64,000 nt of DNA from Flavobacteriales bacterium (GTDB lineage: Bacteria; Bacteroidota; Bacteroidia; Flavobacteriales_F; PHOS-HE28). A program made the translations under genes and the position numbers. This document shows, piece by piece, positions 7,071 through 59,535 of this stretch; positions within the stretch are counted from its first letter, which is position 1, and the number at the start of each line of letters is the position of its first letter. The notes below the pieces were generated by a model. It was not told where the DNA came from, searched no databases, and saw nothing but the letters and a program-made list of their open reading frames with translations. The stretch spans positions 9,637 to 73,636 of the forward strand of contig JABWBQ010000006.1 in NCBI GenBank assembly GCA_013360395.1. Reading direction: 5' to 3'.

Positions 7071-7190
7071 GGCCACCGAAGAGCGGGGTGGTTCGCGCCG
7101 TGCATACGCGATCCGGCCTCCAAGGTTCCCGCCCTGAACGGTGAAGGGCCGGGAAGCTCCCGGCCCTTCACCACGATGCCGCTCCTCCGG

Positions 7191-10100
7191 TCAACGCACC
7201 AACGTCACATGCCCCACGCTCTCCCGTTCCGCCCCCAGGGTGCCGTGGACGTCCTCGATGAACCGGTATTTCAGCTTCCACACGTACACGCCGTCCTGCA
7301 CGTCCGTGCCGTTGCGCTTCCCATCCCAGGCCACCTCGGCGTCCTGGCCCACGAAGATCTGCTCACCCCAGCGGTCGAAGACCCGCATCTCCATGGTCGC
7401 GATGTTGTACCCGTTGGGCATGAACAGGTCGTTCACCCCGTCGCCATCGGGCGTGAAGCTGTTCGGCACCCAGCACTGTGGCGGGCAGAACTCCACCACT
7501 TCGATGGAATCGGTGATGGTGCAGTTCAGCGGGGTGGTGATCTCCACGATGTACCAGCCGTAAGCGTTCACCTCGATGGTCTGCGTCTCCTCGTCGGTGT
7601 TCCACAGATAGGTGCAGCCGGGGTTCCCCGCATCCAGCAGCGTCTTCTTCGGCCAGTGGTCCAGGCAGAGCACTTGCTCCTCTTCGGTGATGTAGTTCGG
7701 CAGGGGGTTGAACACCACCGCCACCGAATCGCGTGTGGTGCAGTAGCCGTTGAACACCTCGGCCCAGACGTCCTGCGTGGTGGTGACGAAGGTGGTCTGT
7801 GCGGTGGACCCGGTGCTCCACACATGGGATTGACCAGGGTTCCCGGCGTCCAGGTGCATGGTGTCCGTGTCGCACAAGGCCGTGTCCGGCCCCAGGTCCA
7901 CCACCGGGAAGGGGATGATGTCGATCACGGCATCCGCCGAATCCACGCACCAAGTGGGCGTGGTCACCACCACCGAGTAGGTCCCGCTCACACTGTCCAC
8001 TTGGATCACCTGCGTGGTCTCCCCCGTGCTCCACAGGTGGCTGCTGCCCGGGTTGCCCGCATCGAGCGGGATCGTTTCGCTGATGCACACGGCGGTGTCG
8101 CTGAGGACGATCACGGGCAGCGGGTCGAACACCACGTCGATGCTGTCGCTGTTCACACAGTTGTTCCCGTCGGTCACCTCCACCTGGTAATTGTCGTCCG
8201 TATTCACGGTGATGGTCTGGGTGGTGGCCCCGGTGTTCCACAGGTACTGGCTTCCGGGGTTGCCGGCGTCCATGGTCCAGTTCTGGCCGATGCACAACGA
8301 GGTGTCCGGACCAAGGGTGACCACCGGCAGGGGGTCCACCGTCACGTTCGTGGTGAAGGTGGCCTGGCAGCCGAGCGTGTCCGTGATGGTCACGGTGTAG
8401 GCCCCGGCCGTCGAGACCGTGATGGTCTGGGTGGTGGCGTTGGTGCTCCAGTCGTACGTGCTTCCCGGGTAGCCCGCATCGATCACCATGCTCTCGCCAG
8501 CGCACAACGATGAGTCGGCGATGAAGGTGAGGTCGTCGAAGGATACCGTGATGTTCACGGTGTCGCGGGCCGAACAGCCCAGGGCATCCTGCACCACCAC
8601 GATGTATTGCGCGGTGGAGTCGAAGGTGATCACCGGGTTGGCGGTGTTGGCACCTGTCAACTGGTTGGTCGGTGTCCAGCTGATGACGGCGCCCGGCACG
8701 TTGTGCTGCACGTCGAGCACGAAGCCCACCGGGTCGCAGAGCGCGGTGTCCGCCGTGGCCGTCACCACGTAGGCCGTGCTCACCGTGATCTCGATGTCCT
8801 CGGTGAGCACGCAGCCGCTGATGGTGTCGGTGACGGCCAGCACGTAGGTGGTGGTGGTGAGCGGCGTGGCCGTGGGGTCCTGCAGCGTGGCGTCGTCCAG
8901 GGACCCGGCCGGCGTCCAAGCGTACACCAGGTTGGTGGTGTTGCCGTTGATGGTGGCGTCCAGCAGCGTGCTCTCACCCTGGCACAGGTCGTCGTCCAGG
9001 GTGGTGACGGTGAGCCCCAGCAATTGGTTCACCGTGATCGTCACACTGTCGGTGGCGCTGCAGCCCTGGCCGGTGGTCACCGTCACGAAGTACTCCGTGG
9101 TGGTGGCCGGTGTGGCGATGGGCGATTGTACGAAGGTGGCCGAAAGGGTGCCGTTGTTGGGCGTCCACGTCCAGGTGTGGTTGGTGCCGGAGCTCGGAAC
9201 GGCGTTGAGCTGGATGCCCCCCAGGTCGCAGATGGCCGTGTCCGGCGTCATGGCGATGCTGAAGGGCGCGCCCACCTCGATGTACACCGAATCCTGATAG
9301 CTGCACTGCGTGCCGGTGAGCGTGCTCTGGACATGGTACCAGCCCGTGGTCGTCGGGTAGGCCATCGGGTTCGGGATGTTGGCGGCGCTCAAGGTGGCGG
9401 CGGGCGACCAGTTGATGGTGAGCCCGGTGGTGCCCTGGGCCCCGATGGCCACGTTGTCCAGGCTCCAGTTGTCGTTGCCCGGGCCGCTGCTGTTCAGCTG
9501 GCGCCAACGGAACAGCGTGGCGGCGGTCTGTGCCGCCGGTGGGATCGGATAGGTCAACGTGGTGAAGTTGGGGTACAGGTATTCCCACAGGGTGGCCATC
9601 ACCGTCCAGCTGCCGCCGCCGTTGGTGGAATACTCCAGCACCACGTCCTCGCCCGGGTCCGCATCGTCGCACGGCGGGGCCGCCGCCCCGATCTTGATGG
9701 CGAAGCTCACGCTGCCCCCGCTCGCCACGTTCATGGCGGCCGTGGTGGCCTGCCGCGGGTTCACACCGTCGAAGTACAGCGCATCGCCGAACACCGATCC
9801 GCAGGCATTGCTGATGCTGCCGCCCTGCACCGCGTTCCACATGGAGGTGAGCACCATGTCCAGGGGGTCCTCGGCGATGATCTGGTGCACCTGCAGGTCC
9901 AGTTGCGAGGAATCACCCTGGCACAACGCATCCACGGCCGTGCTGGCCTCATAGAGCAGGATGTCCCCCTGGATCACATCGATGTACACGCTGTCCAGGC
10001 TCACCGCACAACCGTTCAGGGTGCTCACGCTCACGTAGAACCAGCCGCTCTGGGTGGGCGTGGCCACGGGGTTCTGCAACGAGCCGTCGTTCAGCTGGGC

Positions 10101-32514: not shown

Positions 32515-32674
32515 AGGCTATCTCAAGAAACCCTTTGGGCTGCGCGAGGAACTTTTGCGCCCATGCTTCGTTGTGAAAAATCTTTCAGAGCTACCGGCCA
32601 TTCTCGGTTCTCACGCCTCGCCTGGACGCGAAATACTTGTCGCTCGCTTCCAAGATCATTTTTGAGACAGCCTC
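32514..32674 (+). repeat. dispersed ~160-bp element with 13-bp terminal inverted repeats (copy A); MITE-like or structured RNA
   Basis: Begins gaggctatctcaa and ends ttgagacagcctc; about 80% identical over its length to 46225..46387 in the same orientation. Contains the conserved core cacgcctcgcctggacgcgaa. Starts at the last base of the yejK stop codon. Confidence 0.7.
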
Positions 32675-32783
32675 TGGCCGGCCCGTACCGCCCGCCGCCG
32701 TGCGCGATCCCGTGACACCCGTCCGGTCGCGCGCTCTTGCCCTTTGCCCGGCCTGTGCGCATCTTGGTCCCAGCACCCCGCCC

Positions 32784-35700
32784 ATGCGCCTGTTCCCGCT
32801 GATCGCCGGAGCGCTCCTCGCACCCGAACTGGGGGCACAGCTGCTCTTTGACCGCATCACGGCGGCCGATGGCCTTCCGAACGAGGAGGTCCATGCGCTG
32901 TTCGAGGACCGCGACGGCTTCATCTGGGCCGGCACGGCCGATGGCCTGGCACGTCTGGAGGGCACCAGGGTCCGCGTCTTCCACCACGACCACAACGATA
33001 CCGCCAGCCTGGCCCACGACCAGGTGCGGGGCATCGCGCAGGACGCCGCAGGCACCCTCTGGTTCGCCACCATGGATGGGCTGTCGCGCTTCGATGCGCA
33101 GCGCGCCACCTTCACCAACCTGCGCATCACCGCCGCCGGAACGGATGCGCGGCAGGCCAATCGCATGCTGCAGGTGCTGCCCCTGGGCGACACGCTGCTC
33201 TGGGTGGTCACCGAAGCCGGCCTCTACCGCCACGACATCCGCAGCGCCCGCTTCCGCAGCGTGCAAGGCCGCCCGGCCGGAGAGGGCCCCGCGGGCATGG
33301 TGAACGCCGCCGGTGCCGTATTCTGGGATGCGCCGCACCGAACCCTGTGGGTCGGCACGCACAAGGGTCTCGCCTCCTGGGATGCGAACACCGGGCGCTG
33401 GACCGACCATCGGAACAGCACGGAAGAGCCCTGGGCGGGGACCTCCTCCACCAACGTGCCCGTGGTCCATGGCGATTCGCTCTGGTTCCTGCGCAACGCC
33501 CCCTACACGCTCTGTGCGTATGACCTGCGGCGCAGGCGGATGCACGTACAGCCCGACCTCGAGCAGGAGCCGAACCGTTTCACCCTGCGCGCCCAGGGCA
33601 TCGGCCCGGACGGTACGCACTGGCTCTGTACGTGGACCCACCGTGTCTTCCGCCGCCGGCCACACGGCAACTGGCACGAAGTGCGATCCATGGTGGACCG
33701 CCCCGGCGCCATGCCGTCCACCCGGGTCAGTGCCTTGTTGTTCGTGCGTAAGGGCGAGACCTGGTTCGCCACTGCCCAAGGCATCGCCGCCCTGCGCCCG
33801 ACGGCCGACAAGATCGTTCCCCTGTACGAGGACCCCGACGGCCGCATGGTCTCGGCCCTGGGACGGCTGGGTAAGGACACCCTGTTGGTGGGCAGCGCCG
33901 GTGGGGGGGTAAGCCTGGTGGACCTGCGAACGGGAGAACGCACCGCCCCCCTGCGTCGCGTGTCCGCCGCCTTGCCGGAGGAGCTGGAGCTGGCCAACTT
34001 CGTGCGTGCCTTCGGCACCGCATATCGGGGCATGCCGCTGGTGTGCACCTCCCGGGGCCTCGCCCTGCTCGATGTGCGTGGCGGTGCGCTCAGGCCCATG
34101 CAGGCGCTCGATGCGGCGTTCCCGCAGGCGGGGGAAAGCACCTTCACTTTCGCCGAACGCGCGGATGGGGCCTTCTGGTTCGGCACCTGGTCGCGGGGTC
34201 TTTGGCGGCTGGATGAAGGCAGCGGCGACGGTGTGTGCATTGACACCGTGGCCGGACCGTACGGTGCGCTGCCCGGCCGCATGATGCTGAGCTGGCTCAC
34301 CGACCGTTCCGGCGGAGCTTGGGTGGGCATGAACGACGGCGGTGGGCTGGCGCACGAGGTGAACGGTCGGTTCCAGGTGCTGCGCGAGCCAGGGGGGGGC
34401 CATGTGGGCGGTGTGGTGCGTTCCATCGCCGAAGGCCCCGACGGAAGGATCTGGCTCGGCACCCACGAACGGGGGATCCTGGTGTACGACCGCGCGACCG
34501 GCGGCACCCGCTACTACACCCGCCGCGACGGCCTGCCCGCCACGCGCATCCACGCGCTCCTGTTCACCCGCGACGGCACCTTGTGGGCGGCCACCGCCGG
34601 CGGCTTCGCCTTCATGGAGCCCGGCACGGCGACCTTCCGAACACCCGACCTCCCCGCCGGGCTGCAGGAGGGGGGGGCCTACACGTTGCAGGAACTGGCC
34701 GACGGCCGCCTCGCGCTCACCATCGGCGACCGGGTGTTGTTGTATGACCCGGCCATCGGGCCTGCTTCCGTGCCTCCGCATCCGGTGTTCACCGGCCACC
34801 GCATCAACGACCTGCTGGTGCGCGGCGCCCCCGGGCCCCTGGAACTGACGTACGATCGCAAGGCCCTGAGCCTGGAGCTCGGGACGGTGGGCCATCACTT
34901 CGGGCCACCGCCACAGTTCCGCTATCGCCTGGCGGACAAGGATACCGGCTGGTACGAGCTGGGCCGCGTTGCACGCATCGACCTGTTCGATCTGGCACCG
35001 GACCGCTACCATATCCAGGTGCAGGCCAGTGCGGACGGTGTGCACTGGAGCACCGACGTGGCGGCGGTGGAGGTCGCCGTGCGGCCGCCCTTCCACGCCA
35101 CCTGGTGGTTCAGGTCCCTGATGGCGCTGCTGGCCGTCCTGGCGGCGGTGGCCGGCTCCCGGGTCCATCTGGCCATCCGGCTGCGCCGCCAGCGCGAGGC
35201 GTTCGAGCGGGAGCAGGCCGTGCTGGCCGAACGCATGCGGATCGCCAGCGACATGCACGACGACCTCGGGGCCGGTCTCAGCGCCCTGAAACTGCGCAGC
35301 GAAATGGCCCTGCGCATGGAGAGGGACCCGTCGAAACGCGACCAGCTCGGCGCGCTGGCCCGGACCGCGGGGGAGCTCATCGGCAGCATGCGCCAGATCA
35401 TCTGGACCATGAACGCCGACCAGGGGAGCGTGGCCGACCTGTTCGCCTACACCGGCAGCTATGCCCGCAAGTACTGCGACGAAAATCGGGTGGCGCTGAC
35501 GGTGGTGGCGGACACGGACCCGCCCGCCGTGTCGCTCAGCGCCGAGCAGCGCCGCAACGTCTTCCTGGTGGTGAAGGAAGCCCTGCACAACATCGTGAAG
35601 CATGCCGCCGCCCACCGGGCCGAGCTCCGGATGCGCTGGGACAGCGGCGCGATGGATGTGCTCATCTGCGACGATGGGCCCGGATGGCCCGCGAACCCCG

Positions 35701-35891
35701 AGGCCACCGAAGGCAACGGGCTGCGCAACATGCGGCGGCGCATCGCCGCGCTTGGCGGCACCATCGACCCGGTCCGTGACGGGAGCCCGCTTCCCGGGGC
35801 CTGCCTGCACTTCCGGGTGCCGGTGGCCATGCCCCCTAACCTTCGTTCCATTGACCGGTCCGTGGCGGCCGATGACCTTCGTGGCGCATGA
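32784..35891 (+). CDS. sensor histidine kinase with periplasmic two-component-regulator beta-propeller (Reg_prop/Y_Y_Y), TM segment, HisKA_3 and HATPase_c
   Basis: M50 of the track ORF gives MRLFPLIAGALLAPELGAQ (signal peptide). Repeated F.D..G.LW.GT..GL motifs (Reg_prop), a TM at WWFRSLMALLAVLAAVAG, an H-box (MRIASDMHDDLGAGLSAL) and an N/G-box (GNGLRNMRRRIAALGG). 4-nt overlap with the response regulator. Confidence 0.85.
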   Translation: MRLFPLIAGALLAPELGAQLLFDRITAADGLPNEEVHALFEDRDGFIWAGTADGLARLEGTRVRVFHHDHNDTASLAHDQVRGIAQDAAGTLWFATMDGLSRFDAQRATFTNLRITAAGTDARQANRMLQVLPLGDTLLWVVTEAGLYRHDIRSARFRSVQGRPAGEGPAGMVNAAGAVFWDAPHRTLWVGTHKGLASWDANTGRWTDHRNSTEEPWAGTSSTNVPVVHGDSLWFLRNAPYTLCAYDLRRRRMHVQPDLEQEPNRFTLRAQGIGPDGTHWLCTWTHRVFRRRPHGNWHEVRSMVDRPGAMPSTRVSALLFVRKGETWFATAQGIAALRPTADKIVPLYEDPDGRMVSALGRLGKDTLLVGSAGGGVSLVDLRTGERTAPLRRVSAALPEELELANFVRAFGTAYRGMPLVCTSRGLALLDVRGGALRPMQALDAAFPQAGESTFTFAERADGAFWFGTWSRGLWRLDEGSGDGVCIDTVAGPYGALPGRMMLSWLTDRSGGAWVGMNDGGGLAHEVNGRFQVLREPGGGHVGGVVRSIAEGPDGRIWLGTHERGILVYDRATGGTRYYTRRDGLPATRIHALLFTRDGTLWAATAGGFAFMEPGTATFRTPDLPAGLQEGGAYTLQELADGRLALTIGDRVLLYDPAIGPASVPPHPVFTGHRINDLLVRGAPGPLELTYDRKALSLELGTVGHHFGPPPQFRYRLADKDTGWYELGRVARIDLFDLAPDRYHIQVQASADGVHWSTDVAAVEVAVRPPFHATWWFRSLMALLAVLAAVAGSRVHLAIRLRRQREAFEREQAVLAERMRIASDMHDDLGAGLSALKLRSEMALRMERDPSKRDQLGALARTAGELIGSMRQIIWTMNADQGSVADLFAYTGSYARKYCDENRVALTVVADTDPPAVSLSAEQRRNVFLVVKEALHNIVKHAAAHRAELRMRWDSGAMDVLICDDGPGWPANPEATEGNGLRNMRRRIAALGGTIDPVRDGSPLPGACLHFRVPVAMPPNLRSIDRSVAADDLRGA

Positions 35892-46224: not shown

Positions 46225-46387
46225 GAGGCTATCTCAATAAGAACCTTTGAGCTGCGCGAGGGTCTTTGGCGCCCATACTTGGTTGTGAAAAGCCTTACAG
46301 CGCTACCGACCATGCTCGGCCCTCACGCCTCGCCTGGACGCGAAGTACCGCTCGCTCGTTTGAAAAAAGCATTGTGGAGATAGCCTC
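46225..46387 (+). repeat. dispersed ~160-bp element with 13-bp terminal inverted repeats (copy B)
   Basis: Begins gaggctatctcaa and ends ttgagatagcctc; homologous to 32514..32674; it is responsible for the similar 69-aa artefact ORFs 32456..32665 and 46303..46512. Confidence 0.7.
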
Positions 46388-46483
46388 AAGCGGACCTGGC
46401 GGCTCAGTGGACATGTAGACCCCCGGCCCCTTGCCCGGCATCCGGCCATTCGCCAACTTCGATGTATCAAACCCCGAACGATC

Positions 46484-47461
46484 ATGAAACTCCTGCTCAA
46501 GATCCTCGGCATCCTCCTCGTGCTGGTCGTGCTGGCCGGCCTGGGCGGCTATCTCTACCTGACCCGGGCCCTTCCCGATGTGGACGCCCCTGCCGACCTG
46601 AAGGTGGAGCTGACACCGGACCGCATCGAACGCGGACGTTACCTGGCCAACAGCGTGTGCGTGTGCATGGACTGCCATGCGCAACGGGACTGGAGCCTCT
46701 TCGCCGGCCCTCCCAAACCCGGCACCCTCGGTGCGGGCGGCGACAAGTTCGACCGCACCATGCAGTTCCCCGGCGAGTTCCATGCGCGCAACATCACCCC
46801 CTTCGGGCTGAAGGACTGGACCGATGGCGAGCTGTACCGCGCCATCACCAGCGGTGTGAGCCGGGACGGTCATCCCTTCTTCCCGGTTATGCCCTATCCG
46901 AACTACAACCGCATGGCCACCGAGGACGTGTACGCCATCATCGCCTACCTGCGCTCCCTGGACCCCATCACCACCGCGCCTTTTCCGGAGAGCGTCATCG
47001 ATTTCCCGGTGAACCTCATCATGCGCACGGTACCGGAACCCGCCCGGCCGATGGAACGCCCCGCCCCGGGCGATGCGCAGTACGGCGCGTATGTGATCAA
47101 TGCCGCGGCGTGCATCGAATGCCACACGAACACCGTGCAGGGCGAGCGCATCGGGGAGCCCTATGCGGGCGGCTTCGCGTTCAACTTCCCCGACGGTTCG
47201 GTGCTCCGTTCGGCCAACATCACCCCGCACTCCACGGACGGCATCGGGTCCTGGGACAAGGCGACCTTCATCCGGAAGTTCAAGCAATACACGGACAGCA
47301 CCTACGTGCCGGAGCGGGTGGCACCGGGTGCGTTCCAGACCGTGATGCCCTGGTCGATGTACGCCACCATGACCGAACAGGACCTGGGCGCGATCTACGA
47401 CTACCTCGCCGCGCTCAAGCCGGTGGCCGGCAAGGTGGAGAAGTGGACCCCGGCGCCATAG
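46484..47461 (+). CDS. diheme c-type cytochrome (membrane-anchored)
   Basis: MKLLLKILGILLVLVVLAGLGGYLYL N-terminal TM/signal; two CXXCH motifs (CMDCH and CIECH). Confidence 0.8.
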   Translation: MKLLLKILGILLVLVVLAGLGGYLYLTRALPDVDAPADLKVELTPDRIERGRYLANSVCVCMDCHAQRDWSLFAGPPKPGTLGAGGDKFDRTMQFPGEFHARNITPFGLKDWTDGELYRAITSGVSRDGHPFFPVMPYPNYNRMATEDVYAIIAYLRSLDPITTAPFPESVIDFPVNLIMRTVPEPARPMERPAPGDAQYGAYVINAAACIECHTNTVQGERIGEPYAGGFAFNFPDGSVLRSANITPHSTDGIGSWDKATFIRKFKQYTDSTYVPERVAPGAFQTVMPWSMYATMTEQDLGAIYDYLAALKPVAGKVEKWTPAP

Positions 47462-47628
47462 GCCGTTCATGCCCTTTGGACATCCGGTCCCACCGATCCG
47501 CCTGCTCTACTTCCTCAGGCCTCCACCGGGAGACCTGTCCTGTAGGCCCCGCTACACATCAGGTCTTCCGTTCCGCTTGTGAGCGAACAGCCACGCATCT
47601 TCGGCCGCTCTTGAATGTCCACCTGATG

Positions 47629-47802
47629 TCATTCGGTGCTGCGGCCGCGGTGCTTGGGCCTGCGCGCGTATGTCTTGCGGCTTCGCACCACGCGCGGGCG
47701 GAAACGTCCGTCGAAGGCGCCGGCCTCCTTCTGGGCCGCGCGTTTGGCCGAGCGGTCCAGCGAGGCGGGTGTACGGCGCTTGGGCCTGCGCTTCGCGGTC
47801 AT
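47629..47802 (-). CDS. small Arg/Lys-rich protein (57 aa), possibly spurious
   Basis: MTAKRRPKRRTPASLDRSAKRAAQKEAGAFDGRFRPRVVRSRKTYARRPKHRGRSTE; its ATG overlaps the GNAT stop in an ATGA arrangement, but Arg-rich ORFs are common artefacts in 70%-GC DNA. Confidence 0.3.
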   Translation of the reverse strand: MTAKRRPKRRTPASLDRSAKRAAQKEAGAFDGRFRPRVVRSRKTYARRPKHRGRSTE

Positions 47803-48326
47803 GGGCGCAGGATGCCGTAGTAGAGCAGGTCCGTGAACTCGCCCGAGGCGGTGCGGAACTCGCCCCGCAGCACGCCCTCGCGGAGGAAGCCGCACTGCTC
47901 CACCACCCGGATGCTCGCCGCGTTGTCCGGTGCGATGCGCGCCACCGCCTTGCGCATGCCCAGCCTGCCGAAGGCATGGTCCACGGCCCACATCACGCCC
48001 AGGGTGGCGTAGCCCTGCCCGCCGTGCGCTTCGCTGATGAAGTAGGCCACCTCGCACTTGCCCAGGGCGTGGTCGAACTGTTTGAGGATGAGCGCCCCGA
48101 TGGGGTCGGATCCCTCGTAGTCGCGCAGCATGAAGCAGTGGAAGCTGCCCGCCTTGGCCGAGGCCACCAGTTCCTTGAGGTACCTGCGCGTGGCCCCCAC
48201 GTCCGTGCATCGGCTCACGGTCACCGGGAAGTAGGGACGGAGGCGGGCCTGCTCGCGGCTCACCAGGCGGTGGAAGCCCGCATCGTCGGTCTTGCACGCC
48301 GGCTCGATGATGACCGAATCGCTCAT
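47799..48326 (-). CDS. GNAT family N-acetyltransferase (RimJ/RimL-like)
   Basis: M at residue 157 of track ORF 47799..48794: MSDSVIIEPACK..., with the acetyl-CoA motif FISEAHGGQGYATLGVMWAVDHAF. ATGA overlap with yhhQ upstream. Confidence 0.8.
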   Translation of the reverse strand: MSDSVIIEPACKTDDAGFHRLVSREQARLRPYFPVTVSRCTDVGATRRYLKELVASAKAGSFHCFMLRDYEGSDPIGALILKQFDHALGKCEVAYFISEAHGGQGYATLGVMWAVDHAFGRLGMRKAVARIAPDNAASIRVVEQCGFLREGVLRGEFRTASGEFTDLLYYGILRP

Positions 48327-51719: not shown

Positions 51720-54700
51720 ATGAACCCCCGATCGCTCCTGCTCCCGGCCGTGATGGTGGCGGCCCTGCAATCCCATCCCGGCGTCCTGCCCGCCCAGGTG
51801 AACAGGATCTACCTGGCCCCCGACGACCATACCGACTACCTCTGGAGCGGAACGGTGGCCGATTACGAGCAGTGGATCCCGCAGATGATCGACCACTACC
51901 TCGACCTGAACGACTCCACCGCCGGGTACCCGGCGCCCTACCGCAACAAGTGGAACTGCGACGGCTGGTACTGGGTGGAGATCTACAAGCGCAACCGGCC
52001 GGCCGCGCAGTTCGACCGGCTGATCGCACAGTTGCAGAGCGGCCGCATCACCGTGCCGCTCAACGGGCTGGTGTGCACGCACGGCGGCAACACCACCGAG
52101 GGCGTGATCCGCTCGGGCTACTACGCCGGCCGGCTGCAACGGCAGTACGGCATCGACATCCCTGTGGCGATCAGCATGGAGAACCAGACCCAGCCCCTTG
52201 GCCTGGCCTCGCTGTGGAACGGCATGGGGGCGCGGTACAGCTGGAAGGGCGTGTGCGGATGCGCCACGCAGGTCCCCGGGCTCGGCCAGCGGGAGCACGA
52301 GATCCACCGTTACACGGGCCTCGATGGTTCCGGGGTCCTGATGAAGTGGTACAGCCTCACCTACAACCAGGGCCTGGGCGGCTATGCCGAGGCCTTCGAC
52401 CCCAACACCGCAGTGGACCAGTGCCTGGACAAGCTCAACAGCGTGGCCTTTCCGCACAACTACCCGTACACGGTGGCCGGTGCCTTCGGCCATGGATGGG
52501 ACAACACCTTCACGCTGGACAGCAGCTTCCCCGCCGTGGCCATGGCCCGCAGCAACGACAGCGTCCAGTGCCACGTGAGCAACATGAAGGACTTCTTCGA
52601 GGACTTCGAGGCCACGTACGGCGGAACGCTGCCCGGCCAGTCGTTGAGCTTCGGCAATGAATGGGACTTGGACTGCGCGAGCATCGCCGAGGTCACCGGG
52701 CGCATGCGGCGCGGCATTGAGCGCCTGCGCAGCGCCGAAGCCGTGGCCGCCCTCGCCGCGCGGTACGACCCCGCCGTGTGGACGGACCTGGCGGTGCCGC
52801 GCGAGCAGGCCCACACGGCCATCGCCCTCTACTGGGAGCACAACATGGGCGGGGGCGGCGTGGTGCCTGCCAACGACAGGGCCCTGTGGCAGCGCGGCCT
52901 GGAGGCGCAGGTGACCGGTTATTCGACGCAGCTGCTCAACGACGCCATGGCCTCGCTGGGTGCGCGGATCGACGCGGGCGGCGAGCTGCGCTTCGTGGTG
53001 GTGAACCCGCTGGGCCACCAGCGCACCGACGTGGCCGACCTGCCGTACGCGGGCCCGCAACCCGTGCAGGTGGTGGACCGCACCACCGCCACCGTGATCC
53101 CCTCTCAGGTGATCCAGAAGGATGGCGCCACCTACATCCGCATCCTGGCCACCGCCGTGCCGGCGGCGGGCTACAAGGTCTTCACCGTGCAACCGGGCGA
53201 CCCGCCGGTGCTGCCCAACACGGCCACCCTGGAGACGCACCTGTTCGAGAGCGACCGCTTCCGCATCAGCATGAGCGGTGAAGGGGTGATCACCAGCCTG
53301 CGCGACAAGCTTGCCAACCGCAGCTACGCCGGCACGGTGAACGGCCGCATCATGAACGACCTGGGCGCCTTCACCGCCCCGGGCGGCATCAAGTACCTGG
53401 TGAACAACGGCCCCATCAGCGCCACGGTGCAGACCGAGGGCGTGATCCCCCTGGGACACGATGTGCGCGTGACCCTGTACAAGGACCTGCACCGCGTGGA
53501 CGTGGAGGACCGCATCACCGACAACTTCAGCGACACGCTGGACTGGGCCTTCGGCGTGCAGATCGTGAACGCCACGGTGCACCACGAGGAGCTGGGCGCC
53601 ATCCTCACGGCCAGGCTGAGCAACGCCGGCGGCCACTACGCCACGCAGAACGCCCGCTACGACCAGCTCACCCTGGGCCACTTCGCCGACATCAGCAACG
53701 CGCAGTACGGTCTTTCGGTGAGCACCTCCGGGCCCGCCTTCCTGCGGCTGGGGAACAGCACCGTGGGTTCCTTCGACAGCGGCAGCAGCCAGCTGCGTTT
53801 CACGGCCGGCGGCAACTTCCAGGGCAGTGGCCCGGGCATCCCCGCGCAGCATGGCGACACCCTCTTCCACTATGCCTTCAGCCTGCGCCCGCATGAGGGC
53901 CCCTACGATCCGGTGGCGGCCATGCGCGGCGCGTTGGAGCACCAGAACCCCTTGGTGGTGGGCCTCTGCACCGGCACAGGCGGACCCTATCCCGACACCT
54001 CGTTCGGGGCCTTCACCTTCAGCGATCCCCATGTGATGCTATGGGCCCTGAAACCGGCCGAGGAGGGCATCGGCAATGGCCTCATCGCACGGCTATGGAA
54101 CGTGAGCGATGCGACGCACAGCACCACGCTGGCTTCGCCCTGGGGTCTGGAAGCAGCGCAGACCGCCACGCACATCGAGACCAACACCGGAGCCGCCCCG
54201 CTCTCGAACGGCACCCTCACCGCCTCCTTCGGTCCGCAACAGATGCGCACCTTCCGGCTCACCCCGGGCGGTCCGTCCGTGCAACTGGCGCTGCGCACCG
54301 CGCTCGAGGGGCCCTGGTCCACCATCGATCAACTGATGCGCGATGACCTCCGTGCCGCGGCGCTGCTGCCGCTCACCGAGCCGTACACCGCGCTGGGCTA
54401 CACGCACGTGGGCGGGGGCGGGGAGACCACCGTGCCCGCCGTGCTGCAGGTGAGCGGTGCCGATGCCGTCGTGGACTGGGTGGTGGTGGAATTGCGCGAT
54501 GCGGCGACGCCGTCCACGGTGGTGGCCACACGATGCGGGCTGCTTCAACGCGACGGGGACGTGGTGGGGACCGACGGCCTTTCGCCGCTTTCCTTCAACG
54601 CGCCCGCCGGCAGCTACCGCATCGCCGTGCGCCACCGCAACCACCTCGGTGCCATGACGGCCGCGGCCTTTGCGCTCGCAGGAGCGCCCCTGGCCGTGGA

Positions 54701-55013
54701 CCTCACCGCGCCCGCCACGGCCACCCACGGCACCGATGCGCGCAAGAACCTCAGCGGCACCATGGCGTTGTGGGCCGGCGACGTCACCTTCAACGGCGTG
54801 GTGAAATACGCCGGCGAGGCCAACGACCGCGACCCCATCCTGTCCGTGGTGGGCGGTGCCGTGCCGACGGCCACGCAGGGTGGTTATCTGCGCGAGGATG
54901 TGAACATGGACGGGGTGGCACGGTACGCCGGTGGTGGCAACGACCGCGACCCCATCCTGGTGAACATCGGAGGTGCGGTGCCCACGGCCGTGCGCCCGGC
55001 ACAGCTGCCTTGA
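51720..55013 (+). CDS. large secreted protein, putative glycoside-hydrolase-like N-terminal domain, with duplicated C-terminal Ca-binding-like motif
   Basis: Signal peptide MNPRSLLLPAVMVAALQSHPGVLPAQ. N-terminal IYLAPDDHTDYLW resembles metal-dependent glycosidase (GH38/GH57-like) entry motifs. C-terminus has two copies of YAG(E/G)(A/G)NDRDPIL..(V/I)GGAVPTA. Confidence 0.6.
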   Translation: MNPRSLLLPAVMVAALQSHPGVLPAQVNRIYLAPDDHTDYLWSGTVADYEQWIPQMIDHYLDLNDSTAGYPAPYRNKWNCDGWYWVEIYKRNRPAAQFDRLIAQLQSGRITVPLNGLVCTHGGNTTEGVIRSGYYAGRLQRQYGIDIPVAISMENQTQPLGLASLWNGMGARYSWKGVCGCATQVPGLGQREHEIHRYTGLDGSGVLMKWYSLTYNQGLGGYAEAFDPNTAVDQCLDKLNSVAFPHNYPYTVAGAFGHGWDNTFTLDSSFPAVAMARSNDSVQCHVSNMKDFFEDFEATYGGTLPGQSLSFGNEWDLDCASIAEVTGRMRRGIERLRSAEAVAALAARYDPAVWTDLAVPREQAHTAIALYWEHNMGGGGVVPANDRALWQRGLEAQVTGYSTQLLNDAMASLGARIDAGGELRFVVVNPLGHQRTDVADLPYAGPQPVQVVDRTTATVIPSQVIQKDGATYIRILATAVPAAGYKVFTVQPGDPPVLPNTATLETHLFESDRFRISMSGEGVITSLRDKLANRSYAGTVNGRIMNDLGAFTAPGGIKYLVNNGPISATVQTEGVIPLGHDVRVTLYKDLHRVDVEDRITDNFSDTLDWAFGVQIVNATVHHEELGAILTARLSNAGGHYATQNARYDQLTLGHFADISNAQYGLSVSTSGPAFLRLGNSTVGSFDSGSSQLRFTAGGNFQGSGPGIPAQHGDTLFHYAFSLRPHEGPYDPVAAMRGALEHQNPLVVGLCTGTGGPYPDTSFGAFTFSDPHVMLWALKPAEEGIGNGLIARLWNVSDATHSTTLASPWGLEAAQTATHIETNTGAAPLSNGTLTASFGPQQMRTFRLTPGGPSVQLALRTALEGPWSTIDQLMRDDLRAAALLPLTEPYTALGYTHVGGGGETTVPAVLQVSGADAVVDWVVVELRDAATPSTVVATRCGLLQRDGDVVGTDGLSPLSFNAPAGSYRIAVRHRNHLGAMTAAAFALAGAPLAVDLTAPATATHGTDARKNLSGTMALWAGDVTFNGVVKYAGEANDRDPILSVVGGAVPTATQGGYLREDVNMDGVARYAGGGNDRDPILVNIGGAVPTAVRPAQLP

Positions 55014-57317
55014 TCAGGGATCCTCCTCGCGCCGGCCGAAGATGCGGCGGAGCAGGCCGGGGCGTGCGGTGCTGTCGGTGGGGTCCTTGGGACGGCCCTC
55101 GAACAGCCGTTCCAGCCATCCCGGATCATGCCGCGGTGGGCAGTCCAGGGCGTACCGTGCCGAGTCGGGCGCGGTGAACGGCCGCATGTAACGTTTGCGT
55201 GGTCCGGCCCCGGCCTCGATGCCGTGGAACACCTGGCCCGCGATGGGCAGTGCCAGCTGGGAACCCGTACCCAGGGCCCCGCGGAAATGCACCGCCGGGT
55301 CGCGCGCACCCACCCACGTGCCCACCACCAGGCCGGGGGTGTATCCGAAGAACCACGCATCGCGCTGGTCCTGGGAGGTGCCGGTCTTGCCGGCCACGGC
55401 CCCGGCCACGCCGTACCGTGTGCGCAGCGCCGTTCCCGTGCCCTGGTCCACCGCGCGCCGCAGCAGGGCGTTCATGGCGTCGGCCGTACCGGGCGTGAGC
55501 GCCCGGTGGCCGCGTGGGCGGGGAGCCTCGTACAGCACCTTGCCTTCCGCATCGGTGATGCGGGTGATCAGGCGCGGGCGCGGCCGCTGGCCTCGCGCGG
55601 CGAAGGCCGCGTACACCGGCACCATGTCCAGCAGGCTCAGGTCCGACGACCCCAGGCACACCGAGGGATGCTGCACCTGCACGCCGGGGATGCCCAGGGC
55701 ACGCACCATGTCGCGCAGCGAATCCTTGTCCAGTTGGAAGTAGAGGTCCACGGTGGGCAGGTTCATGCTTTGGGCCAGGGCCGCCCACAGGGCCACCTCG
55801 CCACCGGTGGTGTCGCCGTTGAAGTTGCGCGGCGACCAGTCGTCGTATGCGCTGTAGATGCGCGGAGCGTTGCTCAGGTACATGCACGGTGAGCGGCCGG
55901 CCTCGAGGGCGGCGGCATAGATCACCGGCTTGATCGCACTGGCGATGGAGCGACGCGCCTCCACCAGGTCATAGGGCAGATAACGATGGTGGCCGCCACC
56001 CACCCACGCCCGCACGTTGCCCGTGGCCGGCTCCATCATCAGCACGGCGGCGTTCAGCAGCCGGTGGTAATGCCAGAGGCTGTCGCCGACGCTGATGGTG
56101 TCCACCCGCACGCCATCGTGGTCGTACAGTTCGCGCGGCGCACGCACATCGGCCTTCCGGGTCCGGTCGCCTTTCCCGGCCTTCGACCGTTCCCAGGCCG
56201 CGCGGGCCTTGGACGCCTTCAGTTCGGCATCGAGCCGGGGCTGCATGCGCGCCAGGTGCGTGCGCGCGGCGGCCACGGCCAGGTGTTGCAGCGCGGGGTC
56301 GAGCGTGGTGTGGATCCGCAGGCCGTCCTTGCGCAGGTCGGGGATGGGCGGGTCGGGGCCCACGGCCTTCCCGCGCGCACCCTTGCGTGCACCCTTGGCG
56401 GCCGCGGTCCGCGCCGCTTCGCGCAGGAGCGTTCCGGCCTCCCTTTCCACCCGGGCCACGAAGTACCCGTAGGCGTCGTAGGCATCCAGGCCGGTGTAGC
56501 GCAGTTTGAGCGGGAGCGCCTGCAGGCTGTCCGCCTCACGCGCGCTCAGGTGACCATGCTTCTCCATCAGGCCCAGCACGGTGTTGCGGCGCTCGCGGGC
56601 GCGGTCGGGATGCAGGCGGGGGTTGTACGCCGTGTTCGCCTTCAGCATGCCCACGAGCACGGCGGCCTCCTCCACGCCCAACCGTGTCGTGGAGCGCCCG
56701 AAGAAGCGCCGCGCGGCCGATTCGATGCCGTACAGGTTCTCCCCGAAGGGCACGCTGTTGAGGTACAGCACCAGCACGCCGCGCTTGTCGTACACGCGCT
56801 CCAGCCGCTGCGCCACCAGGGCCTCCTTGATCTTGTTCACCGGCACGGTGAGCGGGCCGTGCCGCTCGCGACCATAGAGGTTCTTGATGATCTGCTGGCT
56901 GATGGTGCTGCCCCCGCCGCCGCTGCGATCGCCCCCCAGGATGGTGCGAAGGAGGACGCGCACATAGCTGGTGCCGTCCACCCCCTGATGCTCGAAGAAG
57001 CGGGCATCCTCGGTGCTCACCAGGGCATCGATGAGGTGCTGCGGCAGGTCCTCATAGCGGATGTTCGTCCGGTCCTCGGCGAAGAGCTTGCCGATCAGGG
57101 TGCCGTCCTCGGCGAACACCAGCGTGGCTTCCTCATTTTCAATGGCCGCCAGCTCGGCTTCCGAGGGCAGCGGGCCGAACACGTTGAGCGACACCAGGGC
57201 CACCAGCAGGAACAGCAGGGCGAGGCCGGTCGCCGTGGCGAACAGCAATGCCCGCAGCAGGAGGGCGCCGCCCCCCGGCGGTGGTGATCCCTTCTTCCTT
57301 TTCTTCTTCTTCGCCAT
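55014..57317 (-). CDS. mrcA: class A penicillin-binding protein (PBP1A; transglycosylase plus transpeptidase)
   Basis: MAKKKKRKKGS... basic N-terminus and TM, GT51 motifs (EDARFFEHQGVD, GGSTISQQ) and transpeptidase motifs (SIASAIKP, SMN, KTGTS). Start at M19 of the track ORF. Confidence 0.9.
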   Translation of the reverse strand: MAKKKKRKKGSPPPGGGALLLRALLFATATGLALLFLLVALVSLNVFGPLPSEAELAAIENEEATLVFAEDGTLIGKLFAEDRTNIRYEDLPQHLIDALVSTEDARFFEHQGVDGTSYVRVLLRTILGGDRSGGGGSTISQQIIKNLYGRERHGPLTVPVNKIKEALVAQRLERVYDKRGVLVLYLNSVPFGENLYGIESAARRFFGRSTTRLGVEEAAVLVGMLKANTAYNPRLHPDRARERRNTVLGLMEKHGHLSAREADSLQALPLKLRYTGLDAYDAYGYFVARVEREAGTLLREAARTAAAKGARKGARGKAVGPDPPIPDLRKDGLRIHTTLDPALQHLAVAAARTHLARMQPRLDAELKASKARAAWERSKAGKGDRTRKADVRAPRELYDHDGVRVDTISVGDSLWHYHRLLNAAVLMMEPATGNVRAWVGGGHHRYLPYDLVEARRSIASAIKPVIYAAALEAGRSPCMYLSNAPRIYSAYDDWSPRNFNGDTTGGEVALWAALAQSMNLPTVDLYFQLDKDSLRDMVRALGIPGVQVQHPSVCLGSSDLSLLDMVPVYAAFAARGQRPRPRLITRITDAEGKVLYEAPRPRGHRALTPGTADAMNALLRRAVDQGTGTALRTRYGVAGAVAGKTGTSQDQRDAWFFGYTPGLVVGTWVGARDPAVHFRGALGTGSQLALPIAGQVFHGIEAGAGPRKRYMRPFTAPDSARYALDCPPRHDPGWLERLFEGRPKDPTDSTARPGLLRRIFGRREEDP

Positions 57318-57560
57318 GAATGACCGGGGCCGACAGGCGGCTGCGCGGGGCCGCCCATGGCGGACGATCAATGGTGCATCGATCCGCGGACGTGGGCCCT
57401 TTCAGGGGGCTGCGAAGTTACCGGCAACGGCCGGAATGGCAGGGGCGAACCCCGTGCGGTCGCCGCCCGTTGCGGTGTGACGTGCGGCCGACCTGGACCG
57501 GGCCGCAACCTGATGCGGCGCGGACGGAAGGTCCGACCGGACCGGTGCTGCGGCGAAGCG

Positions 57561-57680
57561 TTCACTCCGCACCCAACATCCGGTCCTGGAAGAGCAGGTC
57601 CTTCTCATAGGGATAGCGCGCGAGGTGGATGGCCTTCACACGTTCGTACAGCGGCTTGCGTAGCAGGTCGATGTTCCTTG
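57561..57680 (+). repeat. direct repeat: diverged duplicate of the hflX 3' end (copy 1, displaced)
   Basis: ttcactccgcacccaacatccggtcctggaagagcaggtccttctcatagggatagcgcg...ggtcgatgtt matches 58311..58432 (the actual hflX 3' end) at about 95% over about 116 nt; it would encode the last 37 aa of HflX. Confidence 0.8.
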
Positions 57681-57702
57681 CAGCGATGAACGTGGCCACA
57701 CC

Positions 57703-57966
57703 CTATTGGCTCCTGGCCGACCGGTTGTCATACACGGTGACCACTTCGATGGTATTCCGGCTTACACGGTAAACCACCGAAATGTTCGGGTGAATGACGG
57801 CCCTGCGACAGCCGGGGTAAAGCGATGAAGCCTGATAACCCTTGGGGAATCGGGCCACCGATCGTTCAAACTCGTGCAACAGGTCCAGGATGACTTCTTC
57901 CTCGCGTTCGCTCCAGTGGCTGCGCACGTATTCTTTGATCACGTCCACTTGGTCCTTGGCCTCCAT
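57703..57966 (-). CDS. type II toxin-antitoxin system RelE/ParE family toxin
   Basis: 87 aa: MEAKDQVDVIKEYVRSHWSEREEEVILDLLHEFERSVARFPKGYQ...HPNISVVYRV...IEVVTVYDNR is the RelE/ParE fold pattern; low-GC gene. Confidence 0.7.
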   Translation of the reverse strand: MEAKDQVDVIKEYVRSHWSEREEEVILDLLHEFERSVARFPKGYQASSLYPGCRRAVIHPNISVVYRVSRNTIEVVTVYDNRSARSQ

Positions 57967-57985
57967 GGACCAGAGAACGGATCAC

Positions 57986-58210
57986 CTAACGGCCATGACC
58001 GGCCCAGAAATCCGCGCTGCTGATGCAGCGTCCCTTTCGGAGATCCTCCAGACCCCTTTCGATGGAGCGGCGTTCATCCGCCGAGAGGTCCTCCGACCGA
58101 TCTTTCTGCTGCATCGCTTTCTTGATGCCCAATAGCGTACTCAGCAGCCCGGGGTCATCCAGGGACTTGATCCATTCGATCAGCTCATTCCGGGCTGCAA
58201 GCGTGCTCAT
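57986..58210 (-). CDS. putative addiction-module antitoxin component (TIGR02574-like)
   Basis: MSTLAARNELIEWIKSLDDPGLLSTLLGIKKAMQQ... (M13 of the track ORF), 74 aa, immediately upstream of the RelE-like gene (19-nt spacer). Confidence 0.6.
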   Translation of the reverse strand: MSTLAARNELIEWIKSLDDPGLLSTLLGIKKAMQQKDRSEDLSADERRSIERGLEDLRKGRCISSADFWAGHGR

Positions 58211-58311
58211 GGGGTCCGGGTTGGAACAAAGATAGCCCGCCTGCAAGGCGCTTCATGATTCAAAGTCGAGGTCGGCCCGCATCCGCCAGCCCGGCAGGCC
58301 CGGCGGGTGGT

Positions 58312-59535
58312 TCACTCCGCACCCAACATCCAGTCCTGGAAGAGCAGGTCCTTCTCGTAGGGATAGCGCGTGAGGTGGATGGCCTTCACACGTTCGTACA
58401 GCAGCTTGCGCAGCTGGTCGATGTTGTCCTTGCGTGCGGCGGAGATGAAGATGGCCTCCTCGTCGCCGGCGATGCGGGCCATCCATGTGCGTTCCAGTTC
58501 CTCCAGGGTGTACTGGTCGCGGCGCTTGGGGGCCAGGTCGTCCGGGTCGTGCGGGGCCGGGCGGTAGGCATCGATCTTGTTGAAGACCACGAGAACGGGT
58601 TTGTCGCCCGCGCCGATCTCGGCCAGCGTCTGCTTCACGGTGGCATACTGCTGCTCGAAATCGTGGTGGCTCACGTCCACCACGTGCAGCAGCAGGTCGG
58701 CTTCGCGAGTTTCGTCCAGGGTGCTCTTGAAGCTCTCGATCAGTTGGTGGGGCAGCTTGCGGATGAAGCCGACCGTGTCGCTGAGGAGGAACGGCAGGTT
58801 GCCCAGCACCACCTTGCGCACGGTGGTGTCCAGCGTGGCGAAGAGCTTGTTCTCGGCGAACACATCGCTCTTGCTGAGCAGGTTCATCAGCGTGCTCTTG
58901 CCCACGTTGGTGTAGCCCACCAGGGCCACACGCACCAGCTTGCCCCGGTTGCCGCGCTGGGTGGCCATCTGCTTGTCGATGTCGCGCAGCTGGGCCTTCA
59001 GCAGGGCGATGCGGTCGTGCACGATCCGGCGGTCGGTCTCGATCTCCTTCTCGCCCGCACCGCCGCGTGTGCCGGTGCCCCCGCGCTGCCGCTCCAGGTG
59101 GGTCCACAGCTTGGTGAGGCGCGGCAGCATGTACTCGTACCGGGCCAGTTCCACCTGCGTGCGGGCGTGGGCGGTGCGTGCCCGGCGGGCGAAGATGTCC
59201 AGGATCAGGCGCGGACGGTCCAGCACGGGGCGTCCCAGTTCCTTCTCCAGGTTGCGCTGCTGGGCCGGGCTCAGCTCATCGTCGAAGATCACGCTGTCCG
59301 TCCCGTTGGCGTCCACCCAGGCCTTCACCTCGGCGAGCTTGCCGCTGCCCACGTACGTGCGCCCGTCAGGCCGGTGCAGCCTCTGCACGAAGCGCTTCAC
59401 CGTGCGGATCTCCGCCGTGGTGGCCAGGAACTCGAGCTCGTCGAGGTGCTCCTTCACCTGGTCGGTGTCCTGCCCGTCGGTGATCAGCCCGACGAGCACC
59501 GCGGTCTCGGCCTTCACCTGTACGTTCTCGATCAT
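58312..59535 (-). CDS. hflX: GTPase HflX
   Basis: MIENVQVKAETAVLVGLITDGQD... N-terminal HflX domain; G1 GYTNVGKST, G3 DTVGFI, G4 NKID. Start at M72 of the track ORF; ATGA overlap with the upstream cytochrome c gene. Confidence 0.9.
   Translation of the reverse strand: MIENVQVKAETAVLVGLITDGQDTDQVKEHLDELEFLATTAEIRTVKRFVQRLHRPDGRTYVGSGKLAEVKAWVDANGTDSVIFDDELSPAQQRNLEKELGRPVLDRPRLILDIFARRARTAHARTQVELARYEYMLPRLTKLWTHLERQRGGTGTRGGAGEKEIETDRRIVHDRIALLKAQLRDIDKQMATQRGNRGKLVRVALVGYTNVGKSTLMNLLSKSDVFAENKLFATLDTTVRKVVLGNLPFLLSDTVGFIRKLPHQLIESFKSTLDETREADLLLHVVDVSHHDFEQQYATVKQTLAEIGAGDKPVLVVFNKIDAYRPAPHDPDDLAPKRRDQYTLEELERTWMARIAGDEEAIFISAARKDNIDQLRKLLYERVKAIHLTRYPYEKDLLFQDWMLGAE

Follow-up and report, generated by a model that had tools for sequence, protein, structure and literature searches.

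A small toxin-antitoxin cassette at the 3' end of hflX in an uncultured Flavobacteriales genome appears to bring its own copy of the gene end

Introduction

This report concerns a 0.75-kb unit at the 3' end of hflX in a high-GC, uncultured lineage of the Flavobacteriales, contained in a stretch of 64,000 nucleotides (contig JABWBQ010000006.1 of assembly GCA_013360395.1, positions 9,637 to 73,636) that is hereafter called the window. The hflX gene encodes a GTPase and is a ribosome-rescue gene; the unit comprises about 0.63 kb of cargo, a ParE-type toxin-antitoxin (TA) pair, together with a copy of the hflX end. Two described systems come close to this arrangement. Insertion with long target duplication is described for restriction-modification (RM) genes, which are flanked by direct repeats of 46-420 bp, are accompanied by no mobility genes and whose target site is empty in relatives (PMC2853133; Nobusato et al. 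2000; Furuta, Abe and Kobayashi 2010), and a review from the same group describes this mode for RM systems only (PMC3874152). Displacement of rhs C-termini proceeds via homologous recombination that involves circular intermediates, and leaves arrays of displaced gene fragments of variable length (2009, PMC2935791). On the basis of these comparisons, long target duplication seems to be the nearest phenomenon to the hflX arrangement, and rhs C-terminal displacement the nearest mechanism.

Other systems share part of the picture. Orphan CdiA-CT and MafB modules are similar to rhs displacement. In cis-mobilizable elements (CIMEs), in the tandem accretion of ICEs (integrative and conjugative elements) and IMEs (integrative mobilizable elements), and in tRNA-gene islands, direct repeats include the 3' end of a gene, and arrays form via the regenerated site. 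The minimal mobile elements of Neisseria are reportedly cassette hotspots between conserved genes, at which exchange occurs by homologous recombination and the flanking gene ends are not duplicated.

Results

The duplicated gene end

Sequence comparison supports the view that a cassette has been inserted at the 3' end of hflX and has brought a replacement gene end with it (Table 1). A repeat search delineated a direct repeat of 125 nt (57551-57675 versus 58301-58425) with 92% identity and a spacing of 750 nt. An earlier note, made by a model from the letters of the window, had described the last 116 nt of hflX (58311-58426) as recurring at 57561-57676 with about 95% identity; a count gives 109 of 116 positions (94.0%), the seven mismatches lying at 57582, 57607, 57621, 57653, 57661, 57665 and 57676. 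The best 116-nt match in 50 shuffles of the 6-kb region reached at most 54 identities. The downstream edge of the repeat is abrupt in both copies, 2 nt beyond the TGA stop codon (58312-58314 and 57562-57564), while upstream the similarity extends to about 57700 and 58461 across one 2-nt and one 1-nt gap. The only 31-nt stretch that is identical between the two copies is found at 57622-57652.

Despite the insertion, hflX is still a full-length open reading frame (ORF), and an exact-protein look-up of its product returned no record. Compared with the functional gene end, the core of the distal copy carries four non-synonymous and two synonymous changes and has one codon deleted, the pattern expected of an unselected fragment. 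This copy forms a 45-aa ORF (57562-57699) that starts 4 nt past the toxin stop codon and was called as a protein by gene callers in L001, L002 and L182 (L numbers denote the loci compared); it is probably a pseudo-ORF. The lower GC content of the insert, which the earlier note had also remarked on, is borne out by a value of 0.593 for 57701-58309, as against 0.66 for hflX, 0.70 for the downstream penicillin-binding protein gene (PBP1A) and 0.676 for the window.

Empty sites and related cassettes

In this clade, PBP1A is conserved as the gene downstream of hflX, and relatives provide the empty site that the earlier note had proposed to look for: hflX is followed directly by PBP1A in L003, L004, L005, L016, L084, L085 and L088. 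The same TA pair with an hflX-end repeat, also suggested there as a check, occurs in L087, L163 and L164-L167, in other lineages and with different downstream DNA. In a BLAST search of 162 loci, in which the terminal 150 nt of every hflX served as query for the locus it came from, second hflX-end copies emerged in four kinds of place, represented by L087, L006, L066 and L164/L165.

In L087 (HflX 84% identical), the same TA cassette is present with 87.8% identity over 614 nt; its left junction is that of the window (stop codon plus 2 nt), the decayed junction between toxin stop codon and distal copy is also the same, and the distal copy is followed by VapBC, not PBP1A. In L006, a HicA/HicB pair on the opposite strand is located between hflX-end repeats of 121 nt. 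In L066, an AT-rich Kordia (HflX 63% identical), an ORF for a small peptide of 85 aa lies between hflX and a copy of ~90 nt, which begins at homologous codons (K-E-N-L-D; general pattern K-D/E-N-I/L-D) and ends at the stop codon. Cargo other than TA pairs can, therefore, use the hflX-end layout. Finally, L164/L165, reached through a toxin with 72% identity, present an array with three end copies: hflX, a ParE-type TA pair, an hflX end, HicAB and another hflX end. The ParE cassette with a distal hflX end is also found on L163, L167 and one JGI contig.

The repeat-flanked cargos measure about 630, 630, 530 and 360 bp, in addition to the two cassettes of the L164 array. Judged from these sequences, they appear to form a recurrent class of very small, stackable cassettes, each ending in a copy of the hflX 3' end and carrying a ParE-type TA pair, HicAB or a small-peptide gene. 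At its 5' side, the repeat has a variable limit, at about -150 for the ParE cassettes, -105 to -125 for HicAB and -114 for Kordia, and the 3' limit is always the stop codon. Such limits are expected if donor and recipient share the coding sequence only, the downstream DNA being unrelated.

In L066, the cargo ORF and two small ORFs downstream of it (7276-8395) share a leader of the form MKK..L.LNKK.ISNL...KGG. One of the downstream ORFs has a weak, below-cutoff match to a class I lanthipeptide leader (NF038153, E 7e-4); the cargo ORF has none.

A mosaic hflX gene

The earlier note had proposed that the cassette carries a replacement gene end, and the gene is indeed a mosaic, its body resembling that of L003 and its 3' end that of L087. 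By sliding identity, nucleotides 1-1030 of the window gene are closest to L003 (89.5%) and L083 (87.4%), with L087 at only 82.2%, whereas nucleotides 1031-1224 are 88.7% identical to L087 and only 69.4% to L003. A site was counted as informative if L003 and L083 share a base that differs from that of L087, L006 and L007. Up to nucleotide 1030, 39 such sites are L003/L083-like and five L087/L006/L007-like, while between 1068 and 1109 the counts are 0 and 11 (Fisher p = 4e-8). The breakpoint thus bracketed coincides with the outer repeat limit (~58461) or lies slightly upstream of it, a position that favours homologous recombination over an integrase. In agreement with this, the C-terminal HflX peptide ..ARIAGDEEAIFISA..YPYEKDLLFQDWML.. 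is common to the window, L087, L006 and L007 and is not found in L003, L083, L004 or L016.

On the other side of the cassette, a comparison of 5' ends indicates that PBP1A of the window is L003-like from its first alignable codons, and a second mosaic boundary that was sought in PBP1A was not located. Since hflX switches at 58506-58468 and PBP1A is L003-like, it follows that an L003-like genome received from an L087-like lineage one block, which comprises the hflX 3' end together with the TA pair and the distal copy.

Beyond the YPYE.DLL motif, the HflX tails of L003, L004, L005, L016, L083-L085 and L088 are highly variable in sequence and in length, by 5 to more than 20 residues, and the hflX frame of L086 runs on into an unrelated Cys-rich tail.

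The two copies in the window and the corresponding copies of L087 can also be compared with each other. Identity reaches 94% between the two window copies but only about 87% between the proximal copies of the window and L087 (hand count on the alignment), and in both genomes the two copies share genome-specific substitutions and tails. This within-genome likeness suggests gene conversion or gap repair, and gene conversion was probably involved. The mismatches between copies, which the earlier note had read as a sign of an old integration or a diverged donor, can simply serve neither to date the insertion nor to gauge how far the donor had diverged, given that copies are more alike within a genome than between genomes. 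The toxin-adjacent ~25-40 nt of the distal copy (~57677-57700 in the window) behave differently, displaying derived changes and an indel common to the window and L087, which indicates that this part of the distal copy travels with the cassette.

The toxin-antitoxin pair

The earlier description of a RelE/ParE-like toxin and a small antitoxin on the hflX strand stands as regards the two genes and their strand; the toxin, however, belongs to the ParE rather than the RelE branch, and it is truncated. A TGA codon interrupts the family-length ORF at codon 5, where L087 has CGA, and leaves a residual ORF of 87 aa (57703-57966, minus strand) that restarts at codon 14 (ATG 57964-57966). This remnant still matches the family profile PF05016 (E 2.1e-5, 25.4 bits, cutoff 23), remains under the cutoff of TIGR02385 RelE_StbE (23.3 versus 27.9 bits) and has ParE2 (5cw7, E 2e-5) as its best PDB sequence match. 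Of the 30 homologues, which come almost exclusively from metagenome-assembled genomes of Flavobacteriales, most are 96-101 aa long, and they start with MA..R.V.WS.EA; of their near-invariant residues, the window remnant lacks V7, W9 and S10, and it carries the substitutions F36I and L46S at two further near-invariant columns.

An AlphaFold model (pLDDT 85) was built from the intact homologue P0003, which is 80% identical, not from the ORF of the window itself. Its elements (E6-9, H11-27, H30-49, E64-69, E72-78 and E82-90) predict a beta-alpha-alpha-beta-beta-beta fold for the family, and the segment lost in the window toxin would correspond to strand beta1 and the first turn of helix 1. Foldseek comparisons place the model nearer to ParE2 (5cw7/5czf; TM 0.80-0.87, rmsd 1.4 A) and other ParE toxins (TM 0.71-0.82) than to YafQ, YoeB and RelE (TM 0.44-0.69).

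The antitoxin gene is intact, and a 74-aa partner accompanies the toxin gene in every homologous locus. Its position upstream of the toxin is retained in at least eight genomic contexts, with an overlap of 11 nt in intact loci (4787-5011 and 5001-53xx in L164, L168, L170, L173, L175 and L179). A minus-strand motif of the Bacteroidetes -7 type (TAnnTTTG), TATCTTTG, precedes the ATG of the antitoxin by 16 nt (58234-58227) and is kept in L087 and L164; by analogy with the published Bacteroidetes consensus, it may act as a promoter. Sigma-70 promoters were not found, as expected for Bacteroidota. Overall, the module is probably a decaying TA pair in which the toxin is disabled and the antitoxin kept, since the nonsense codon in the toxin implies a relic that is no longer addictive. 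The pair resembles ParDE and PaaA2-ParE2 in its PF05016 toxin, in the superposition of the model on ParE2 and in the small, overlapping upstream antitoxin gene; it differs from them in that the antitoxin matches no described family and that the toxin carries the early stop codon and two altered near-invariant positions.

A functional link between HflX, as a ribosome-rescue factor, and translation-targeting toxins was considered, as ParE, HicA and VapC cassettes all sit at this gene. It was set aside because the toxin belongs to the ParE and not the RelE branch, HicAB lies on the opposite strand and non-TA cargo occurs too.

The same toxin family at other sites

Loci reached through more distant toxins (65-70% identical) provide repeat-flanked examples away from hflX. 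In L175-L178, where the toxin is 65% identical, the TA pair is located between carB and an abhydrolase gene and is flanked by a duplicated abhydrolase 5' end; in L175 this duplication covers 4656-4790 and 5344-5441, the first ~33 codons (91 nt at 77%; 22 of 31 aa, E 6e-14). The TA pair of L188 is accompanied by a direct repeat of ~47 nt with a 33-nt core that is 94% identical (3684-3716 and 4399-4431), the upstream copy lying inside a 53-aa ORF. The duplications in L175-L178 and L188 imply that flanking duplication is not tied to hflX. Two 169-aa genes around the TA pair of L179 were examined as a possible duplication and proved to be unrelated.

In L168 (4461-6176), and also in L169, a near-perfect hairpin of 35 nt, GCAGTTATCACTCGCGACACGCGAGCGATAACTGC, is present in four copies, which set apart a ParE-type TA pair, a VapBC pair and a second TA copy with a frameshift; these genes lie upstream of PBP1A, and hflX is not adjacent. 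The hairpin may represent a terminator, a REP-like element or an attC-like site, and it is absent from the window.

Coordinates and other features of the window

The features of the locus are collected in Table 1. The left non-coding end of the cassette includes a small hairpin at 58250-58238. A search of 57000-59000 against Rfam yielded nothing but a sub-threshold chance match within the PBP1A coding region (E 0.44), and the whole window gave no match at the Rfam gathering thresholds.

Table 1. Features of the hflX locus in the window, in window coordinates.
Feature	Coordinates	Strand	Remarks
hflX (GTPase HflX, 407 aa)	58312..59535	-	TIGR03156 E 6e-126; Pfam GTP-bdg_N/M, MMR_HSR1
hflX recombination breakpoint interval	58468..58506	-	From informative sites
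Proximal repeat copy, functional hflX 3' end	58310..58461	-	Well-conserved stretch 58310-58438; includes last ~40 codons and stop codon
Left non-coding end of cassette	58211..58309	-	-7 motif and small hairpin
Antitoxin gene (74 aa), intact	57986..58210	-	No Pfam, NCBIfam or PDB sequence match
ParE-type toxin, family-length ORF	57703..57996	-	ATG 57994-57996; in-frame TGA 57982-57984 (codon 5)
Distal, displaced copy of hflX 3' end	57560..57700	-	Decaying fragment
Native intergenic spacer, distal copy to PBP1A	57318..57559	-	Similarity to L087 ends exactly at distal stop codon
PBP1A-type penicillin-binding protein	55014..57317	-	Transgly and Transpeptidase domains; synteny

Other repeats were observed in the window. 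A 1097-aa ORF (51720-55013) with a weak match to a GH38 C-terminal domain has at its C-terminus the motif ..YAG..NDRDPIL in repeated form, encoded by a tandem pair of 63 nt (54780-54959, 75% identical). A direct repeat of 118 nt (32532-32649 versus 46244-46361, 84% identical) has its copies 13.7 kb apart; the first overlaps the start of a plus-strand ORF (32637-35891) for a hybrid sensor kinase (Reg_prop/HisKA_3), and the second lies ~100 nt upstream of an ORF (46462-47820) with no Pfam match. This repeat, which has no Rfam match and a fold z-score of -0.67, may represent a shared regulatory region. Finally, positions 2400-9400 contain 88-112-nt repeats that fall into several families, their periods being about 210, 243 and 414 nt in addition to an offset of 4.7 kb, which suggests two paralogous, very large ORFs composed of tandem domains.

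Discussion

Proposed mode of insertion

We lean, by a small degree, towards insertion through homologous, Campbell-type recombination mediated by the gene-end copy that the cassette carries. The inserted unit consists of the ParE-type TA operon and a copy of the last ~125-150 nt of hflX, placed directly after the hflX stop codon. A single Campbell-type crossover between the hflX end of the cassette and that of the chromosome, or import of the whole block by homologous recombination, would leave an intact gene that ends in incoming sequence, with a gene-end copy downstream of the cargo. The most likely agent is the homologous recombination machinery of the host and not a dedicated integrase. 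The first duplication at a new site would probably have arisen by the poorly understood insertion with long target duplication known for RM genes. Insertions flanked by direct repeats are easily lost by loop-out, and addictive TA cargo may, therefore, be preferentially retained. A possible example of such a loss is the Logan contig L183 (SRR24928192, 1-560), in which hflX is joined via a hybrid repeat directly to PBP1A; the PBP1A product is identical to that of the window, as is the flanking DNA across the aligned stretch. It is possible that L183 represents the expected loop-out product or a cassette-free allele of the same species.

Several observations weigh against Campbell-type insertion. 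No circular form, read-level excision junction or recA dependence has been seen, and these bacteria are not known to be naturally competent. A single Campbell event predicts the native tail in the distal copy, whereas both window copies carry an L087-like tail (..LLFQD[W/R]MLGAE) and no L003-like tail is present, such that additional gene conversion or import of the block by a double crossover must be assumed. The spacer is similar to that of no relative, and the right-hand crossover can thus not be placed. The crossover in L183 falls inside the sole shared run of 31 nt (57622-57652), so that the contig could be a chimera of a de Bruijn graph with k = 31, and the cassette is present in each of the six long contigs from this species. 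A flanking repeat is lacking in some loci of the same TA family (L170, L173, L179 and L190). Insertions with no repeat also occur between hflX and PBP1A, namely VapBC (L007, L087), a lipoprotein (L008) and a 3.3-kb glycosyltransferase/methyltransferase block (L083); when degenerate hflX-end copies were sought after these four insertions, downstream of the distal copy of L006 and at empty sites, none scored above shuffles.

From this variety of insertions, some with a repeat and some lacking it, the hflX-PBP1A gap is recognised as an insertion hotspot at which a subset of cassettes is bounded by hflX ends. VapBC constitutes a third TA type at the hotspot: a VapB-like/VapC (PIN) pair with no hflX-end repeat lies directly upstream of PBP1A in L007 (7290-7947), L087 (5670-6228) and L168 (5385-5949).

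Alternative explanations

It is unlikely that the cassette is a non-autonomous site-specific element, similar to a CIME or an integron cassette, whose hflX-end copies serve as att sites and which is excised and integrated by an integrase supplied in trans, from another part of the genome or from a helper element, through a crossover close to the 5' border of the repeat. Elements that are flanked by att sites and rebuild a gene end have exactly this layout, and tandem accretion of the L164 type is typical of site-specific integration. Furthermore, the repeat spans the same homologous codons in the high-GC lineage and in the AT-rich Kordia, and the hflX end directly upstream of HicAB (the proximal copy of L006 and the middle copy, O2, of L164) has the same TAG stop variant. 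The analogy with tRNA-targeting islands that the earlier note had drawn is a structural one: repeats like att sites rebuild the gene end. It does not extend to integrase chemistry, as the integrase for which the earlier note had proposed to search was found neither in the cassette, nor in the window, nor adjoining hflX in ~160 loci. The scan for the tyrosine-recombinase motif HxLRH[ST] in ORFs of at least 150-200 aa, which is crude and does not cover serine recombinases, gave no match in the window, and in the ~160 hflX loci (6-kb flanks) it gave matches only in L035/L105/L110, L104 and L135, 2-4 kb from hflX and unconnected to hflX-end repeats. The cassette DNA matched no plasmid or phage, and the literature search returned no report of hflX as an attachment site (attB) or of TA pairs downstream of it. 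Unequal 5' boundaries between cassettes also speak against a site-specific element, as does the homogenisation of copies within a genome, which conservative recombination leaves unexplained, and the duplicated gene ends used by the TA family in L175 and L188 would need a different recombinase specificity for each site.

We consider it quite improbable that every insertion creates a fresh duplication of the recipient's target, whether through template switching or through ends-in recombination combined with gap repair, so that both copies are host-derived and the cassette brings little or no gene-end sequence. Such an origin would account for the genome-specific substitutions and tails common to both copies in the window and L087, and for the duplication of unrelated targets beside the same TA family in L175 (91 nt) and L188 (~47 nt); moreover, RM systems provide a documented precedent in which the repeats measure 46-420 bp and mobility genes are lacking (PMC2853133). 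It does not predict the derived changes and indel shared by the toxin-adjacent ~25-40 nt of the window and L087, which indicate that this segment travels with the cassette, nor a functional hflX end that is foreign (L087-like) and not of the type of the closest relative. Independent events would also not be expected to place the left junction at the stop codon plus 2 nt every time.

Little credence can be given to the cassette as an eroded remnant of a larger, integrase-bearing island or prophage at the hflX 3' end, of which the TA module was left between att repeats. The toxin is already decaying, and TA modules are often located near island ends and resist deletion; yet all repeat-flanked insertions found here are tiny (about 360-630 bp of cargo), no larger, integrase-bearing version was found at hflX in the ~160 loci, no relatives of hflX or the toxin were found on IMG/VR viral contigs, and three unrelated cargos would have to have been eroded independently to minimal size.

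That the duplicated copy is an assembly artefact, as the earlier note allowed, or a chance similarity can effectively be ruled out: short-read assemblers do break or mis-join at the repeat (the shared 31-mer is the exact starting point of contigs L184-L186, and L183 is a possible chimera), but the copies differ by seven positions and by indels, shuffles do not approach their identity, the junction of toxin, distal copy and PBP1A is present in the independent assemblies L001, L002 and L182, both cassette junctions are seen in L087 from another metagenome, and junctions recur in further samples and species (L163, L164-L167).

Comparison with described systems

As in long target duplication, the hflX unit is small, belongs to a class of addictive genes, lacks a transposase or integrase and differs from its host in GC content, and its direct repeats, tens to hundreds of bp long, correspond to a single copy at the empty site of relatives; some of the reported RM repeats also overlap the 3' end of a gene. 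The dimensions agree with those that define the phenomenon, the insert (0.63 kb) being shorter than 20 kb and the repeats (116-140 nt) longer than 30 bp, with a single copy in relatives and no linked mobility genes. As to whether both copies derive from the recipient, the evidence is divided: the copies share genome-specific changes, yet the toxin-adjacent part is shared with L087 and the proximal copy is foreign. The cargo, in contrast, is a type II TA pair (elsewhere HicAB or a peptide gene) and not an RM system, the repeat ends at a stop codon, lineages that are far apart reuse one and the same gene end, cassettes are stacked in arrays and part of the repeat travels with the cassette.

The likeness to rhs lies in the proposed course of events. 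In both cases, the incoming DNA would be a fragment of a conserved gene with new downstream genes, no dedicated recombinase would take part, a single crossover in the conserved portion would let the gene end in incoming sequence and shunt the resident end downstream, and repeated events would generate arrays of gene fragments of variable length. The rhs tips, however, are functionally different toxins that diversify the C-terminus of the gene itself, whereas at hflX the encoded peptide is nearly the same for the incoming and for the displaced end, with an unrelated cassette between the two as the payload.

With CIMEs and tRNA islands the cassette shares the absence of an integrase on board, repeats that include a gene 3' end and rebuild the gene, and tandem arrays. 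Gene-rebuilding direct repeats and an empty site, both hallmarks of tRNA-type islands, are present here; an element-encoded recombinase is not, as the cassette consists of two TA genes only. CIMEs originate from, and rely on, a known ICE or IME that carries an integrase and occupies the same site, and no such element at hflX was found in the 6-kb flanks of ~160 loci, on viral contigs or in the literature search. The hflX repeats are also longer, diverged and variable at their 5' ends, and the TA family uses other gene ends. Integron cassettes differ in that the end of the hflX cassette is an hflX fragment and not an attC-like hairpin, and no integrase motif was found. As for the minimal mobile elements of Neisseria, the hflX-PBP1A gap similarly houses varied small cassettes (ParE TA, HicAB, VapBC, lipoprotein, glycosyltransferase cluster), and the mosaic hflX of the window similarly points to recombination in the flanking conserved gene; the duplication of the flanking gene end is what sets the present locus apart.

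Significance

The movement of chromosomal TA loci outside plasmids, phages and transposons is poorly understood, and the hflX locus offers a concrete and testable anatomy: a tiny cassette present in several lineages, varied cassettes at one gene end, a two-cassette array, empty sites and a replaced host 3' end. It extends long target duplication, known for RM genes, to classical TA pairs, and links it to the circular-intermediate model of rhs. The novelty lies in the TA cargo, in a gene-end repeat that is bounded by the stop codon and recurs among distant Flavobacteriia, in the arrangement of cassettes in tandem and in a host gene end that was visibly replaced. In practical terms, duplicated gene ends break short-read assemblies and create pseudo-ORFs that are annotated as hypothetical proteins, such as the 45-aa ORF described above. 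For this particular genome, the biological impact is probably small, as hflX is intact and the toxin is already disabled.

It is conceivable, though we regard it as somewhat doubtful, that gene-end-anchored mini-cassettes represent a general route along which small genes, type II TA pairs among them, pass between genomes with no recombinase of their own. A short copy of a conserved host gene terminus would serve as an 'address', host homologous recombination would rebuild the gene and leave the displaced copy behind, and cassettes could accumulate in integron-like arrays, while addictive cargo would protect an otherwise unstable, repeat-flanked insertion. If this were true, the hflX locus of the Flavobacteriia would be the first clear example of such a route that forms arrays.

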